In this document: in pieces, positions 1 through 9,207 of the stretch | Position numbering within the stretch: the first letter of the stretch is position 1 | How the letters are laid out: every line of letters starts with the position of its first letter | Assembly: GCA_963836075.1 (NCBI GenBank) | Contig: CAWIIB010000001.1 | Location: 544,001 to 608,000 of the forward strand | Source of the DNA: an uncultured Acidobacteriota bacterium | GTDB lineage: Bacteria > Acidobacteriota > JAQAZP01 | Direction of reading: 5' to 3' | Length of the DNA: 64,000 nt | Made by a program: the position numbers and the translations under genes | Notes under the pieces: model-generated | Told to the model about the DNA's origin: nothing | Seen by the model: only the letters and a program-made list of their open reading frames with translations | Database searches by the model: none

Positions 1-1661
1 GTGCTGGTCACCGTGCTGGCCGTGGTTCTCGCCGTGGCCCACAATGCCGTTTCCATCGCCATCCTCGGGCTGCTCGGCGGACTGATCAGTCCGCTCCTCC
101 TTTCCAGCGGCGAGAACCGGCCCTACGCCCTGTTCAGCTACCTCGCGGTACTCGGCCTGATCGCCATCGGTGCCGCGCTCTACCGGCGCTGGCGGGCTCT
201 CGATCTGCTGGCCTTCAGCGGCACGGTGATCATCTTTCAACTCTGGTTCGGCCAGCGCTACACCGCCGGCCAGGAGACACCGGCGCTCCTCTTCACCACC
301 CTGTTCTACCTGCTCTACCTGCTCGTCCCCCTGCTGCACGGCCTGGTCCGGCAGACGCCCTCCCGGGTGGAAGAACTGGCCCTGGTGATGGTCAATGCGC
401 TCTGGTCCGCCATCTCCTTCTACCGGATCCTGCACCAGGACCACCACCAGGTGCTGGGCTTCGTGATCCTCGGGCAGGCAGCGCTCGTCTTCCTTTTCTT
501 CCAACTCTGGCGCAAGAGGGTGCCGGAGGACCGCTGGACCGCGGAGAGCCTGCTCATCCTCACCCTCGGCCTGGTCACCGTGGCGATTCCGATCCAACTG
601 CGGCTCTACGGGATCCCCGTGGCCTGGGGAATGGAGGGGCTGCTGCTGACCTGGCTCGGCATCCGCTACCAGCGCCTGAGCTGCCGGGTGGGCGGAATGA
701 TCGCCCTCCTGCTGGCCGCCGGCGGGCTGCTCTGGCGGCTGCCGCTGCACAAGGCGCTGTTCACCCCGGTGTTCAACATCCCCTTCGGCTCCTGGGTCGT
801 GGTGATCGCCGCTGCCGCCGGGGCCGGCTGGCTGCTCTATCGCCGCGGTGAACTCCCCGGGGACGGCTGGCTGATCTCTCGCGGCAAACTCCCCGGGGCC
901 GCCCTCAATCACGGTCCGGCCTTCCTGCTCTCCGCCCTGCTCACCTGCGGCTTGCTCACCCTGGAAGTGGCCCAGGTACCTGGGACTGGCAGCAGGTGGA
1001 GAACTTCCGGGGATACCAGGCCAGTTCCCTGACCCTGCTCTGGGCACTGTTGCCGCTGGCCACGGCCCTGGCCCTCAACCGCGAGCGGTGGAGGGCAGCG
1101 ATGCCTTTTGCCTGGTTCCTGGTCGGCTGCGGGTTCCTCGCGGTGCTGCCCGGAATGGACCACTACGGGCTCGAAGACGGCTGGCTGCTGCTCAACCTGA
1201 CCTTTGCCGCCAAACTGGCCTTTGTCCTCTCCCTCTGGCAGGTCGCCAGACTGGCGAGGAGATGCGGGACATCCCGCGCCGGTGACATCCTGGAATCGCT
1301 GGGACACGGGTTCCTCGCTATCATCCTGGCCGTCGAGATGTTGCGCTGGGCCGATCACAGCAACTGGGTCCCGGACCGGTTGGGGATCAGTCTCGTTTCG
1401 GCCACCCTTGCCCTGCAGGCGTTTGCCCTGATCTGGATCGGCCTGGCCACCAGGGTTCGGCTGCGCCGGCTCATCGGTTTCGTCCTCTTCGTCATCTGCG
1501 TGGTGAAGGTGGTCGCGGTGGACACCAGCGCGCTCCGCGAGGTTTACCGCATCATCTCTTTCCTGGCCAGTGGACTGCTGCTCATCGCCGCCGCCTACTT
1601 CTACCAGCGGTATGCCAAGCTGCTCTTGGGCACGGAGACGGGCGGGGAGGAAAACCCATGA
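1..1661 (+). CDS. DUF2339-family multi-pass membrane protein (5'-partial; frameshifted at ~975-980)
   Basis: Hydrophobic ORFs 1..1032 and 996..1661 join as LEVAQYWDWQQVENF if two duplicated bases in caggtacctgg are removed. Motifs GLLGGLISPLLLSSG and KVVAVD..L..VYRIISF..SGLLL are typical of DUF2339. Confidence 0.75.
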
Positions 1662-2983
1662 TCGGACGCAGCCCCATTATCCTGTTCCTCCTGCTGCTCT
1701 GCTGCGTGACGGTTCCGGTGACCGCTGCCTTCGACCACGGCGGCTGGAGCTGGCAGGCCCGGATTGGTCCCGGGCCGGAGTCCGAGGGCTTTGTGCGCCT
1801 GCCGCTGACCCCGGAGATCTTCGACCGCTCGCGGCCCGATCTGGCCGACCTGCGGCTTATGGACAGCAGCGGGGCTCTGGTGCCCCATGTGGTCCACTGG
1901 GGCCGGACTAAAGAGAAAGAGGACATCCGCTGGTCCCCGCTGACCTTGATCAACCGCACATTCGAGCCAGGACAGTGGGAGCGGGTGGTGCTCGACTTTG
2001 GCCGGCCGCGGCTCAAGAACCGGATCAGGCTTGCCCTTTCCGGAGATGGGTTCCGGCGCCGGGTGCAGTTGGAGGGGAGCGTGGACGGCCGGTCATGGGA
2101 GCCGGTGGCTGAACAGGGCTGGGTGTTCAGCCTGCGGCGCGACGACGAGCGGTTCGTCGCCGACACGGTGAACTTCCCGGCGAACGATTTCCGCTACCTG
2201 CGGCTGACCCTGTTCCACGATCCGGACGACCCGCGGCGGATCGGATTGGATGCGGTGGACGGCGGTTTTCGTGAACCGGTTAAGGAGCCGGAACTGATGT
2301 CGGTACCGCTGCGAAGCCTGGACCGGTCTCACGACCCGGTGCGGCGGGAGACCAGCGTGCACCTCGACCTGGGGTGGCGGAACCTGCCCCTGGCCCGGCT
2401 CACAGTAGAGTCCGGGGACGACTATTACTACCGGGCATATGAGCTTCTGGGGCGGGATGGTGAGGTGGAAACAGTGAGACGCCGCCACGAATCGGGCTGG
2501 ATCACCGAGGAGCGAGAGGCCCCCTGGCGTCCGGTGGGCCGGGGGGTGCTGCACCGGATCCACCACGGTGACCGAATCTCCGTGGCCAACACCATTGCCC
2601 TGGACCGGGTGCGCCACCGCTATCTCAAACTGGTCATCCTCGATCAGGACAATCCGCCGCTGGTAATTGAGGGTGTCGTTGTGCAGCGGCGGGAAGTGAG
2701 CCTGGTCTTCGATCACCGGCGGGATGTCGAATATTCGCTCATCGGAGGGAACCAGCAGGCCGAAACTCCGGCCTACGACCTGGCCCAGGCCGTGGACGGC
2801 GTGGACGAGAAGATCCTGCCGCAGTTGGCTGCACCGTCACAGCTCGAGATGCTGGACCACGTTCCGCCGACCCTGCCCTGGACCGAACGCTACCGGGTGG
2901 TGCTCTGGGGCGCGCTGATCCTGGCCGTGGGTCTGATGCTGCTGCTCATTTTCCGCAGCCTGGGCCAGCTTGGCCGGGATTGA
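1658..2983 (+). CDS. DUF3999-like exported, C-terminally anchored protein
   Basis: Signal peptide, DLADLRLMD..G..VP, LEGS.DG.SW, G..QA.TP.YDL and a C-terminal TM (VLWGALILAV). ATGA overlap with the DUF2339 gene, its usual partner. Confidence 0.7.
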   Translation: MIGRSPIILFLLLLCCVTVPVTAAFDHGGWSWQARIGPGPESEGFVRLPLTPEIFDRSRPDLADLRLMDSSGALVPHVVHWGRTKEKEDIRWSPLTLINRTFEPGQWERVVLDFGRPRLKNRIRLALSGDGFRRRVQLEGSVDGRSWEPVAEQGWVFSLRRDDERFVADTVNFPANDFRYLRLTLFHDPDDPRRIGLDAVDGGFREPVKEPELMSVPLRSLDRSHDPVRRETSVHLDLGWRNLPLARLTVESGDDYYYRAYELLGRDGEVETVRRRHESGWITEEREAPWRPVGRGVLHRIHHGDRISVANTIALDRVRHRYLKLVILDQDNPPLVIEGVVVQRREVSLVFDHRRDVEYSLIGGNQQAETPAYDLAQAVDGVDEKILPQLAAPSQLEMLDHVPPTLPWTERYRVVLWGALILAVGLMLLLIFRSLGQLGRD

Positions 2984-3064: not shown

Positions 3065-4693
3065 TCAGCCGTTTTCCGGCACCCGCATCCCGTCACCGTG
3101 CACCAGGGCGCGGTAGGTCTTTTCAATGCGGTCCCAGTTCTCCTCGCGGTCCAGGGCCCAGTGACGGCCGATCACGGTGGTCACCTTGCCCAGGCCCAGC
3201 TCCGCGGCCTTCTTCTCCATGTCGCCCACATAGCGGGCACCGGCCTCGGGCCGCTCCCCCCGCCGGCCCAAAAGGCCGTGGATGTAGACTTCCTTCACGC
3301 CCCGCTCTTTCGCCATATCCATCAGCGCGTAGAGGTGATCCAGGGAGCCGTGGGAACTGAAGAAGGAAACGATGCCCAGCAGGTGCAGGGCGGTGCCGTC
3401 CTTCTTCGCCCCGTCCATCATGGCGCAGAAGGCCGGGTTCTTGCCGAAGTCGCCGGTTTCCAGGTCGGCCTCGATGCGCAGACGGTCGGAGTAGACCACC
3501 CGGCCGGCGCCGATGTGCAGGTGGCCCGACTCGGAGTTGCCCACCGTACCTTTGGGCAGGCCCACGGCCCGGCCGTGCGCCGCCACCTGGACCCAGGGGT
3601 AGTTCTTCATCAGCTCGTCCAGCACCGGGGTGCCGGCATCCTTGATCAGGTTCCAGCCCGGATCGGCATCCGGGTCGCCGATGCCGAAGCCGTCGACGAT
3701 CATCACCAGCACCCGGCGGTCCCGGTCGCCGAGCATCCTGTGGGCAAATCCTGCCGGCAGCATGTTCGCGCCGTTCATCACTTCAGGGATATCGAGGCCC
3801 AGCAGGTCGAGGGCCGTGGGCGCCACGTTGATCAGGCTGCCGCCCTCGGGCAGCCGCAGGCCGGTGGCGTCGCAGCCCTCGGGGGGCACGACGATAAAGG
3901 GCACCGGGCTGTCGGTGTGGCCGGTGTCGATGCTCCCCTCGGGGTATTTGCGCTTTTCCACGGTACCGTGGTCGGCGATGACGATGGTGGCCACCCCGTT
4001 CTTGCGCGCGGCCTCGATCACCCGGCCGGCACAGCGGTCCACGGTCTGCACCGCCTTCTTCACCGCCTCGTCGTTCTCGATGTGTCCCACCACGTCGACA
4101 TTGGCGAAGTTGCCCACCAGCAGCTTCATCTCGGGGTCGCCGAGGTGCTTGACCAACCGGTTGGCCACTTCCTCGGCCTCCATCTGGGGCCGCTGGTCAA
4201 AGAAGTCGATATCCTTTGGCGTGGGGACGAAATCACGGGTCTCGCCATCGTAGAAATCCTGGCATTTGCCGTTGAAGAAGAACCCGAGGTGGATCGCCTT
4301 CTCGGTCTCCACCACCTTGGCCTGTTTCAGGCCGGCGCGGCTCACCACGTCGCAGAGAGTGTGTGTAAGTTTTTCCAGCGTCGGGTAGGCCACCTCGACG
4401 TCGAGCTTCGGGTCATACTCGATCATGGTGGCCCAGCGGGTCTTCATCCCCCTGGGGATTTCGAACTCGTTGAAATGCTGCTTGACGAAGGCCTCGGTCA
4501 GTTCCACTTCACGCTCGCCGCGGATATCGTAGAAAATAACGTAGTCGCCGTCGCCGATGCGCCCCACCGGGTTGCCTTTTCCATCGTCGAGCACCATGGG
4601 CTCCATGGCCTCGTCGTCCTCACCCAGGCGATACCGTTCGAGAACGGCCTGGCTCATCGGCGTCACACGTTCTGTCTTGCTAGTCTGGTCCAT
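3065..4693 (-). CDS. gpmI: 2,3-bisphosphoglycerate-independent phosphoglycerate mutase, circularly permuted
   Basis: All iPGM motifs are present (IVDGFG, VGLP.G..GNSE.GH..IGAGR, ETEK, NFANVDVVGH, ADHG, GHT..PVP, VAPT.L), but the canonical C-terminal half comes before the canonical N-terminal half. Confidence 0.88.
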   Translation of the reverse strand: MDQTSKTERVTPMSQAVLERYRLGEDDEAMEPMVLDDGKGNPVGRIGDGDYVIFYDIRGEREVELTEAFVKQHFNEFEIPRGMKTRWATMIEYDPKLDVEVAYPTLEKLTHTLCDVVSRAGLKQAKVVETEKAIHLGFFFNGKCQDFYDGETRDFVPTPKDIDFFDQRPQMEAEEVANRLVKHLGDPEMKLLVGNFANVDVVGHIENDEAVKKAVQTVDRCAGRVIEAARKNGVATIVIADHGTVEKRKYPEGSIDTGHTDSPVPFIVVPPEGCDATGLRLPEGGSLINVAPTALDLLGLDIPEVMNGANMLPAGFAHRMLGDRDRRVLVMIVDGFGIGDPDADPGWNLIKDAGTPVLDELMKNYPWVQVAAHGRAVGLPKGTVGNSESGHLHIGAGRVVYSDRLRIEADLETGDFGKNPAFCAMMDGAKKDGTALHLLGIVSFFSSHGSLDHLYALMDMAKERGVKEVYIHGLLGRRGERPEAGARYVGDMEKKAAELGLGKVTTVIGRHWALDREENWDRIEKTYRALVHGDGMRVPENG

Positions 4694-4746: not shown

Positions 4747-4776
4747 ATTATAGGAATTCGGGGCTCGGCGGGTCAA
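4747..4776 (-). promoter_or_regulatory. sigma70-type promoter for the permuted gpmI
   Basis: Minus strand TTGACC-18 nt-TATAAT, about 55 nt upstream of ATG 4693. Confidence 0.65.
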
Positions 4777-4946: not shown

Positions 4947-8246
<3,300 letters not shown>

Positions 8247-8250
8247 TCCG

Positions 8251-9207
8251 ATGAGTCTCGAGATCGCCCGCAAGGTGCTGGAAATCGAGGCCGACGCGGT
8301 GCGCGGCCTGATCGAGACCCTGGACGAGCGGTTCGAACAGGCCGTGGACCTGATCTTCGGCTGCACCGGCCGCACCATCCTCACCGGCATGGGCAAGTCG
8401 GGGATCATCTGCAAGAAGATCTCGGCCACCCTGGCCTCCACCGGCACACCGTCCCTTTTCCTGCACCCCGCTGAGGCGGTGCACGGGGACCTGGGCATGG
8501 TGGTGGAGGGCGACGTGGTGGTGGCCGTCTCCAACAGCGGCGAGACCGAGGAGATCACCCGCATGCTCGACCGGATCAAGCGGCTGCGCGTCCCGCTGAT
8601 CTCGCTCAGCGGCTCGCTGCAGTCCACCCTGGCCCGGTACAGCGACGTGGCCCTGCACATCCCCATCCCCCGGGAGGCCGACCCCCTGGGCCTGGCCCCC
8701 ACCGCCAGCACCACCGCGGCCCTGGCCATGGGCGACGCCCTGGCGGTGGCCCTGACCCAGCGCCGCGGCTTTCGCCGGGAGGACTTTGCCGCCTTCCACC
8801 CCGGGGGCGAGCTGGGCCGGCAGCTGCTCAAGGTGGGTGACCTGATGCACCGTGGCGACCGCGTACCCCGGGTGGGCCCGGAGACCACGCTCAAGGACTG
8901 CCTGATCGAGATGTCGGCCAAGGGCTTCGGCATGACCACCGTGACGGACGGGGACGGCTTGCTGCTGGGCATCGTCACCGACGGCGACCTGCGCCGCTGG
9001 CTGGTGCAGGACACCGACATCAGCAGCGTCACCGCCGGCCAGTGCATGACCAGGGATCCGGCCACCATCCCGGTCACGGCCCTGGCCACCCGGGCCCTGG
9101 CCCTGATGGAAGAACGGAAGATCACCTCGCTCTGCATTGTCGACGACCAGGGCACGCTGGAGGGCATCATCCACCTCCACGACCTCTGGCGAACCGAAAT
9201 GGTGTAA
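8251..9207 (+). CDS. kdsD: arabinose-5-phosphate isomerase (KpsF/GutQ family, SIS plus CBS pair)
   Basis: TGMGKSG, STGTPS.FLHPAEAVHGDLG, APTASTTA.LAMGDALA, FHPGG.LG, TDGDLRR. Confidence 0.95.
   Translation: MSLEIARKVLEIEADAVRGLIETLDERFEQAVDLIFGCTGRTILTGMGKSGIICKKISATLASTGTPSLFLHPAEAVHGDLGMVVEGDVVVAVSNSGETEEITRMLDRIKRLRVPLISLSGSLQSTLARYSDVALHIPIPREADPLGLAPTASTTAALAMGDALAVALTQRRGFRREDFAAFHPGGELGRQLLKVGDLMHRGDRVPRVGPETTLKDCLIEMSAKGFGMTTVTDGDGLLLGIVTDGDLRRWLVQDTDISSVTAGQCMTRDPATIPVTALATRALALMEERKITSLCIVDDQGTLEGIIHLHDLWRTEMV

Follow-up and report, generated by a model that had tools for sequence, protein, structure and literature searches.

A circularly permuted protein from the cofactor-independent phosphoglycerate mutase family encoded by an uncultured Acidobacteriota bacterium

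Cofactor-independent phosphoglycerate mutase (iPGM, GpmI) serves as a drug target and is known from textbooks as a two-domain hinge enzyme. The passages of PMC5382265 that deal with the enzyme describe a two-domain, two-hinge architecture in which phosphoglycerate is bound by His, Asp and Arg residues. The collinear order of iPGM, with an N-terminal phosphatase part, an inserted transferase domain and a C-terminal phosphatase part, is not the order found in the protein analyzed here. We studied an open reading frame (ORF) in a stretch of 64,000 nucleotides (the window) from the genome of an uncultured Acidobacteriota bacterium (contig CAWIIB010000001.1, positions 544,001 to 608,000). An earlier note, made from the sequence alone, had described the product of this ORF as a circularly permuted phosphoglycerate mutase (PGM). 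Our analysis confirmed that ORF 3065-4693 is a clean circular permutant of iPGM/GpmI.

Order of the chain and reality of the gene

In a phmmer search against PDB sequences, the iPGM of G. stearothermophilus (1EJJ) was matched twice and in swapped order, with residues 327-536 of the query aligned to chain positions 5-211 (186.5 bits) and residues 16-312 aligned to positions 219-509 (172.5 bits). This is the pair of exchanged alignments that the earlier note had expected against a canonical enzyme. Family profiles were also matched in two stretches each. Pfam iPGM_N placed profile positions 1-129 of 217 at residues 407-535, which is the C-terminal end of the protein, and Pfam Metalloenzyme (PF01676) placed positions 66-251 of 252 at residues 107-301. 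The PF01676 score of 169.2 bits, against a gathering score of 24.3, makes the protein a member of the alkaline-phosphatase-like superfamily. The iPGM model TIGR01307 scored 446.4 bits against a cut-off of 330.65, with residues 8-312 corresponding to profile positions 208-504 of 504, while the stricter equivalog model NF003897 (356.6 bits, cut-off 862) and the ApgM model TIGR00306 (20 bits, cut-off 320) were not reached. The break point falls at about canonical residue 212-218, and the Pfam, TIGR01307 and 1EJJ alignments agree in placing the new termini inside the transferase (substrate-binding) domain, as had been proposed. The ORF is intact and lacks a long duplicated segment, although up to about ten canonical positions (~208-217) are possibly present at both chain ends. 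The gene and its parts map to the window as follows.

3065..4693, minus strand: whole ORF, circularly permuted iPGM-family protein P0001; ATG start, 542 amino acids plus stop, without internal stop
3758..4648, minus strand: residues 16-312 (canonical 219-509 in the phmmer alignment), transferase second part, hinge 2 and C-terminal phosphatase part; holds R58, R61, K132, D200, H204, D241, H242 and H259
3716..3757, minus strand: linker LPAGFAHRMLGDRDRR, residues 313-326, between the former C-terminus and the former N-terminus
3086..3715, minus strand: residues 327-536 (canonical 5-211), phosphatase N-terminal part, hinge 1 and transferase first part; holds D334, S387, H448, R478, R510 and R516
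3533..3535, minus strand: codon of Ser387, within GNSESGH; Ser387 corresponds to Ser62 of 1EJJ, the phosphoserine nucleophile
3344..3367, minus strand: SFFSSHGS, residues 443-450, in place of canonical S-D-G-G-V-H-S-H
3254..3268, minus strand: GRRGE, residues 476-480, in place of canonical D-G-R-D
4776..4747, minus strand: sigma-70-like promoter match, TTGACC, 18-nt spacer and TATAAT, ~50 nt upstream of the ATG; consensus match only

Read along this map, the chain begins in the middle of the transferase domain, passes through hinge 2 into the phosphatase domain and comes back by way of hinge 1 to complete the transferase domain. The phosphatase domain is now contiguous, at about residues 105-400, with the old termini joined via the 14-residue linker. 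In other words, a phosphatase with an inserted transferase domain has become a transferase with an inserted phosphatase domain, with both hinges kept. An AlphaFold2 model built from a 15-sequence alignment reached a mean predicted local distance difference test score (pLDDT) of 87.3 and a predicted template modelling score (pTM) of 0.82. In this model the linker region is ordered (pLDDT ~90, with a short helix at 316-321) and lies inside the phosphatase domain, in agreement with the earlier suggestion that the native termini of that domain can be joined; the linker itself had been placed correctly, at ~3715-3760. In a Foldseek search, all 22 matches at E <= 0.001 were iPGM chains, aligned over 264-336 columns (about one half of the protein) with TM-scores of 0.36-0.51. 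Foldseek is bound to sequence order and therefore aligns only one half, which is the expected result for a permutant. The promoter-like site that the earlier note had pointed out is present, with 11 of 12 consensus positions matched; the scanned region held 3 sites versus 0.5 expected from shuffles.

That this order is an artefact of assembly or binning, or that the gene is a decaying rearranged pseudogene, is hardly conceivable, and we found no point in support of either. Besides the intact ORF and the confident fold prediction, Logan contigs from three runs and two studies bridge the junction, spanning 3500-3994 in run X1 (0 differences), 3552-3829 in X2 and 3240-3853 in X3. Runs X1 and X2 belong to study P1 and X3 to study P2; X1 is possibly the window's own source sample. 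Each end of the gene is spanned by further contigs, with no report of alternative joints. Single runs leave parts of the stretch uncovered, from which no conclusion is drawn because the contigs are low-depth. The same permuted order occurs in the two other genomes of the genus (91% and 89% identity), and the Nei-Gojobori ratio of nonsynonymous to synonymous substitution (dN/dS) among the three genus members is 0.15-0.17. The order is also repeated, across many assemblies, in 120 of 120 close homologues and in the best 80 of at least 563 genome loci. The gene is genuine and under selection, and its product is a circularly permuted member of the iPGM superfamily. The earlier argument against an assembly artefact was thus borne out by contigs from independent runs and by relatives in at least 563 species genomes, while the alternative of a one-off rearrangement is excluded because the protein is one member of a large multi-phylum family.

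Active site, extent and origin of the permuted family

Active-site residues were mapped by hand on the 1EJJ alignment and counted in segment alignments of 134 permuted and 126 canonical proteins. The equivalent residues in the window protein are listed with their 1EJJ counterparts in brackets.

Metal ligands and nucleophile: D334 (D12), S387 (S62), D200 (D403), H204 (H407)
Metal ligands, continued: D241 (D444), H242 (H445), H259 (H462)
Substrate-side residues: R58 (R261), R61 (R264), K132 (K336), H448 (H123)
Substrate-side residues, continued: R478 (R153), R510 (R185), R516 (R191)

The binuclear metal site and Ser nucleophile of iPGM are complete in the window protein (7/7 residues), and every listed metal ligand, the Ser nucleophile and the Arg/Lys/His ligands are present in 134 of 134 permuted proteins. 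Ser also occupies the nucleophile column in all 126 canonical proteins; the structure 1O99 is an S62A mutant. The two sets of metal-site residues match those given for C. elegans iPGM in the portion of PMC5382265 concerned with the active site. Conservation of these residues indicates that a phosphoserine, two-metal mechanism is almost certainly retained. One metal ion would be held by D200, H204 and H259 and the other by D334, S387, D241 and H242, with an anionic phospho-acid held by R58, R61, K132, H448, R478, R510 and R516. Ser387 would take the phosphate and then hand it back to a neighbouring hydroxyl.

The pocket motifs are different. At the four D-G-R-D columns, the expected residue stands in 125 (D), 125 (G), 119 (R) and 123 (D) of the 126 canonical proteins, whereas among the 130 main-clade permuted proteins, a set dominated by relatives of the query and not independent, 121 read G-R-R-G-E instead and 120 read S-F-[FY]-S-S-H-G-S instead of S-D-G-G-V-H-S-H. 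The window protein itself reads SFFSSH and GRRG where the canonical motifs would stand, and keeps the Arg/Lys/His ligands. The Asp that is lost, Asp154, we take to be a glycerate contact in canonical iPGM.

Proteins of the same kind are numerous. Among 8000 scored candidates from a 90%-clustered protein collection, 4062 matched at E <= 1e-3. The best 120 are collinear with the query over 96-100% of its length at 52-91% identity, and a segment test found 120 of 120 to be permuted, which answers the earlier call for a search for proteins of the same order. An exhaustive search of 50%-identity representatives gave 10199 matches at E <= 1e-3; the top 150 comprise 131 canonical, 16 permuted and 3 partial proteins, the 16 permuted including two fragments and one module inside a 5027-amino-acid protein. 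Additionally, a scan of one genome per species returned at least 598 pattern matches and at least 563 confirmed relatives. The best 80 of these loci each show one collinear match over most of the query (49-91% identity) and all come from metagenome-assembled genomes (MAGs), with Acidobacteriota the closest among the matches listed (91%). The other labels among the 80 are Planctomycetota, Anaerolineae/Chloroflexota, Eisenbacteria, Gemmatimonadota, Thermodesulfobacteriota, Deltaproteobacteria/Myxococcota, Aminicenantes, Zixibacteria, Armatimonadia, Neomarinimicrobiota, Clostridia and Chitinispirillaceae. The databases do not agree on a name for these proteins ('iPGM', 'alkaline phosphatase family protein', 'sulfatase-like hydrolase/transferase' and 'PglZ domain-containing protein'), and MAG metabolic reconstructions may therefore miss the family or miscount it as glycolytic PGM.

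For phylogenetic analysis, the two segments were aligned apart and concatenated for 260 proteins with near-full cover of both (the 134 permuted and 126 canonical proteins above), leaving out 7 classified proteins of short cover and the 3 partial ones. In the FastTree result, a bipartition free of canonical proteins (support 0.982) holds 130 of the 134 permuted proteins, with P0123, P0142, P0152 and P0191 outside it. We also ran IQ-TREE (LG+C20+F+G4 with posterior mean site frequencies, PMSF) on 64 rows: the full set of 14 permuted representatives, 6 core members and, from the 126 canonical proteins, 44 that comprise every third one plus four near neighbours. In this unrooted tree, one branch parts all 20 permuted rows from the canonical ones (1 change; support of 84 in the Shimodaira-Hasegawa-like approximate likelihood ratio test, SH-aLRT), and the window protein lies inside the GRRGE core clade. 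Independent origins of the permutation had been suggested by the FastTree outliers; they are not needed, because a single branch in the IQ-TREE result has the 20 permuted rows together on one side. A single origin is compatible with these trees, which do not prove it.

Three permuted subgroups can be told apart. P0123, P0142, P0152 and P0191 stand next to the canonical enzymes and keep DGRD and GVHS. The GRRGE core group carries SF[FY]SSHGS and GRRGE and includes the window protein. In the SSHG group (P0135, P0181, P0201 and others) the second motif varies and is mostly DGRS. The other subgroups share the break point and order of the window protein and lie on the same side of the branch between permuted and canonical proteins, but their pocket motifs differ and their identity to it is only 33-40%.

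Two observations concern members outside the core group. Residues 3860-4373 of P0191, the predicted protein of 5027 residues, make up an entire permuted iPGM module in which canonical DGRD is retained. Copies of a TEKSSHGS subgroup with DGRSTEP or DGRSTQP adjoin a second ApgM gene in 3 of 4 genomes looked at (L101 1153-2757 in G091, L102 2263-3906 in G129 and L103 1069-2771 in G074). In G074 the copy is broken into two ORFs (1 TGA), and the fourth copy, in G136, is not beside its ApgM. These copies and ApgM may form a permuted-iPGM/ApgM gene pair.

Like the earlier note, which knew of no described natural permutant, we found no paper describing a permuted iPGM in the literature searched, from which subscription journals were largely absent. 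The passages of PMC2876114, PMC6957218, PMC12839542 and PMC5570346 that match permutation terms are unrelated text or reference entries. The proteins described here make up a large family of permuted iPGM in uncultured bacteria that is apparently undescribed so far.

Phosphoglycerate mutase content and proposed function

Enolase and phosphoglycerate kinase are both encoded in the window's genome (6.23 Mb, 94.7% complete), where eno and pgk are on the same contig as the permuted gene but distant from it. The earlier note had asked whether a canonical gpmI or gpmA accompanies it. Neither a canonical-order iPGM nor GpmA was found in this genome, where the best His_Phos_1 protein reached 21 and 19 bits against GpmA cut-offs of 320 and 316. 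An ApgM-type PGM is present instead at G000:C1:655600-656733, ~108 kb from the permuted gene, scoring 339.9 bits with TIGR00306 (cut-off 320) and 525.4 with NF003160 (cut-off 468). NF003259, which we take to be 2-phosphoglycerate kinase, had no match in this 94.7% complete genome. The ApgM gene (405 amino acids; L009 1456-2673) adjoins a convergent 359-amino-acid ORF. PGM types were then counted in a sample of 41 genomes of the phylum, among them that of the window and the unpublished G025.

GpmA only: 9 genomes
Canonical iPGM only: 13 genomes
ApgM only: 13 genomes
Canonical iPGM and ApgM: 1 genome
ApgM and permuted form: 4 genomes (3 of one genus, plus G030)
No PGM found: 1 genome

The classical PGM types act as alternatives in this sample, in which only 1 of the 36 genomes with a classical type and without the permuted gene has two of them, and ApgM alone suffices in 13 genomes. 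Because it is the sole PGM type in those 13 of 41, ApgM is the likely housekeeping PGM of the window's genome as well. The permuted gene was found only together with ApgM (4/4). The genome without any PGM is G011 (6.4 Mb, 100% complete; thresholds of E <= 1e-20 for iPGM and E <= 1e-10 for ApgM and GpmA).

We extended the count to 50 genomes of other lineages, picked from the best 80 loci before their PGM content was known; completeness figures are not given for genomes reached through loci. The 30 loci left out are L021, L022, L044, L046, L051, L053, L056, L057, L061, L066, L067, L069, L071, L073, L074, L076, L079, L080, L083-L086, L088, L091-L093, L096-L098 and L100. ApgM is present in 42 of the 50 at E <= 1e-10, in 41 of them above the cut-off. 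Of the eight genomes without it, four have a canonical-order iPGM (G041, G067, G079 and G083), G043 has a second iPGM-family gene of ambiguous order and G087 has GpmA. A class sample, with at least 90% completeness requested, consisted of 61 genomes gathered around an Anaerolineae MAG; in it the permuted gene occurs in 11 genomes and ApgM accompanies it in 11/11. The permuted gene is absent from all 12 genomes of this sample that lack ApgM, of which 8 have GpmA, 3 canonical iPGM and 1 none. Since G030 is the same genome as G046 and two of the samples include G048, there are 63 distinct permuted-bearing genomes, 55 with ApgM and 61 with another candidate PGM. The protein does not behave as a genome's PGM complementary to GpmA or ApgM, given that ApgM stands alongside it in 4/4, 42/50 and 11/11 genomes. 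Thus, the earlier description stands in so far as the protein is a permuted member of the iPGM family, but to call it the PGM of its host is not justified, as its activity is predicted only.

The sequence data make it modestly probable that the protein is an accessory, re-specialised phosphomutase rather than a housekeeping PGM, that is, a paralogue that would act on top of the housekeeping enzyme, here ApgM. An altered substrate or specialised role is most likely because two near-invariant canonical pocket motifs have been replaced; the earlier guess of a different substrate fits these apparently remodelled motifs and the seemingly accessory phyletic pattern. More tentatively, and with somewhat less confidence than an even chance would warrant, we propose that the GRRGE-type proteins are a distinct family in which one ancient permutation, and after it the rebuilding of the pocket, led to a phosphomutase or phosphotransferase whose substrate is neither 3-phosphoglycerate (3PG) nor 2-phosphoglycerate (2PG), working beside ApgM. 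Several points weigh against an accessory, re-specialised enzyme. The glycerate role of canonical Asp154 is a putative one, and all known phosphoglycerate ligands except this one Asp are kept, so that ordinary PGM activity may be retained. TIGR01307, which was passed (446 versus 330.65 bits), is an equivalog model for iPGM. Searches for iPGM, ApgM and GpmA found no other PGM in G064 and G066, genomes whose completeness is not given. Within the 50-genome set, canonical iPGM occurs in 13 genomes, 9 of which also have ApgM, and full-length GpmA occurs in 8; there is redundancy in this set, and MAG contamination is possible. Because classical PGM types themselves often co-occur, co-occurrence alone is no proof of a different function. 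ApgM is also found in 38 of the 50 class-sample genomes without the permuted form, and because it is so common there anyway, 11/11 is only a weak enrichment. A search for RNA data sets containing this stretch listed none. Finally, related genomes are not independent, and 3 of the 4 permuted carriers in the phylum sample belong to one genus.

Much of this would suit an ordinary second 3PG/2PG mutase, a glycolytic or gluconeogenic isozyme either redundant with ApgM or used under particular conditions of metal supply or flux direction, whose permutation and motif changes would be neutral or would only tune its kinetics. The full catalytic set and every Arg/Lys/His ligand are conserved as such an isozyme would need, the TIGR01307 cut-off is passed, G064 and G066 show no other PGM, and redundancy does occur, with two to three classical types in several genomes. 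One permuted subgroup (P0123, P0142, P0152 and P0191) even keeps DGRD and GVHS, so the permutation itself need not alter function. We nevertheless regard a plain isozyme, the main alternative, as rather unlikely: DGRD and SDGGVH, near-invariant in 126 canonical enzymes, are replaced here, the classical types are nearly mutually exclusive in the phylum sample (1/36 with two) where the permuted gene occurs only with ApgM (4/4), another candidate PGM is present in 61 of 63 permuted-bearing genomes, and neither eno nor pgk is linked to the gene, both being distant from it on the contig. Quite improbable, in our judgement, is a phosphatase, whose remodelled transferase domain would have lost its hold on the acceptor, with hydrolysis of the phosphoserine intermediate as the result. 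The intact phosphatase-domain residues, with changes in the transferase domain, would agree with a hydrolase, as would the phosphoesterase neighbours seen in some lineages (PHP, Phosphodiest, His_Phos_1, PAP2 and NUDIX). These neighbours, however, are lineage-specific and none is in the window, and a plain phosphatase is not expected to need a transferase domain with five Arg, one Lys and one His kept invariant under purifying selection.

A natural, ancient and widespread permutant implies that the iPGM fold tolerates termini moved into the substrate domain and provides a natural experiment on the mechanics of domain closure. Should the remodelled pocket mean a new substrate, many sediment and soil bacteria would carry out an unrecognised reaction. 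Similarly, if the GRRGE proteins are a distinct family, a small phospho-acid branch of central metabolism that is so far unknown would exist in hundreds of uncultured species.

Gene neighbourhood and comparison with known enzymes

ORFs within 6 kb of the permuted gene were clustered for the best 80 of the at least 563 loci. There is no conserved neighbour, the top cluster being present in only 12 of the 80 loci. The commonest neighbours are PHP (12), Phosphodiest (type I phosphodiesterase, 11), His_Phos_1 (9), PAP2 (7) and NUDIX (6), and the remainder are unrelated housekeeping genes. No glycolytic gene recurs in the 80 loci, nor do inositol genes, an organophosphate importer or genes for cyclic 2,3-diphosphoglycerate (cDPG) or 2-phosphoglycerate kinase. 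Context gives no function, because the best neighbour is in 12/80 loci and none is glycolytic. The His_Phos_1 neighbour (histidine phosphatase/cofactor-dependent PGM-like, ~212 amino acids, full-length) adjoins the permuted gene in 9 of the 80 loci (L030, L031, L033, L037, L038, L044, L051, L058 and L074), which carry Anaerolineae, Anaerolineales or Chloroflexota/Chloroflexi labels. The median gap is ~1.5 bases, and the gene is downstream on the same strand in 8 of 10 cluster members.

In the window, the genes at 1-2983 on the plus strand run convergently towards the permuted gene's 3' end, and a 3-deoxy-D-manno-octulosonate (KDO) pathway cluster at 4947-9207, also on the plus strand and with overlapping stop and start codons, is divergent from it.

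1-1032 and 996-1661, plus strand: DUF2339 membrane protein in two ORFs, possibly one frameshifted gene or two genes
1658-2983, plus strand: DUF3999 protein
4947-5780, plus strand: kdsB-like cytidylyltransferase
5777-7405, plus strand: CTP synthase pyrG
7392-8246, plus strand: kdsA-like DAHP_synth_1 protein
8206-9207, plus strand: SIS and CBS domain protein, KdsD-like isomerase

Among known enzymes, ApgM (TIGR00306, NF003160) shares with the permuted protein its alkaline-phosphatase-like superfamily and its nominal reaction, but is only remotely similar to it in sequence. Homology to the canonical GpmI/GpmM enzymes (TIGR01307; PDB 1EJJ, 1O98, 2IFY and 5VPU; EC 5.4.2.12) extends over both domains, at ~34-43% identity for the best of them, and the permuted protein has in common with them the two metal sites, the Ser nucleophile, the Arg/Lys/His ligands and the two-domain, two-hinge architecture. 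It differs from them in its permuted order, in its GRRGE and SF[FY]SSHGS motifs and in falling below the NF003897 cut-off. Additionally, whereas canonical GpmI is an alternative to other PGM types, the permuted form occurs as an add-on to another PGM.

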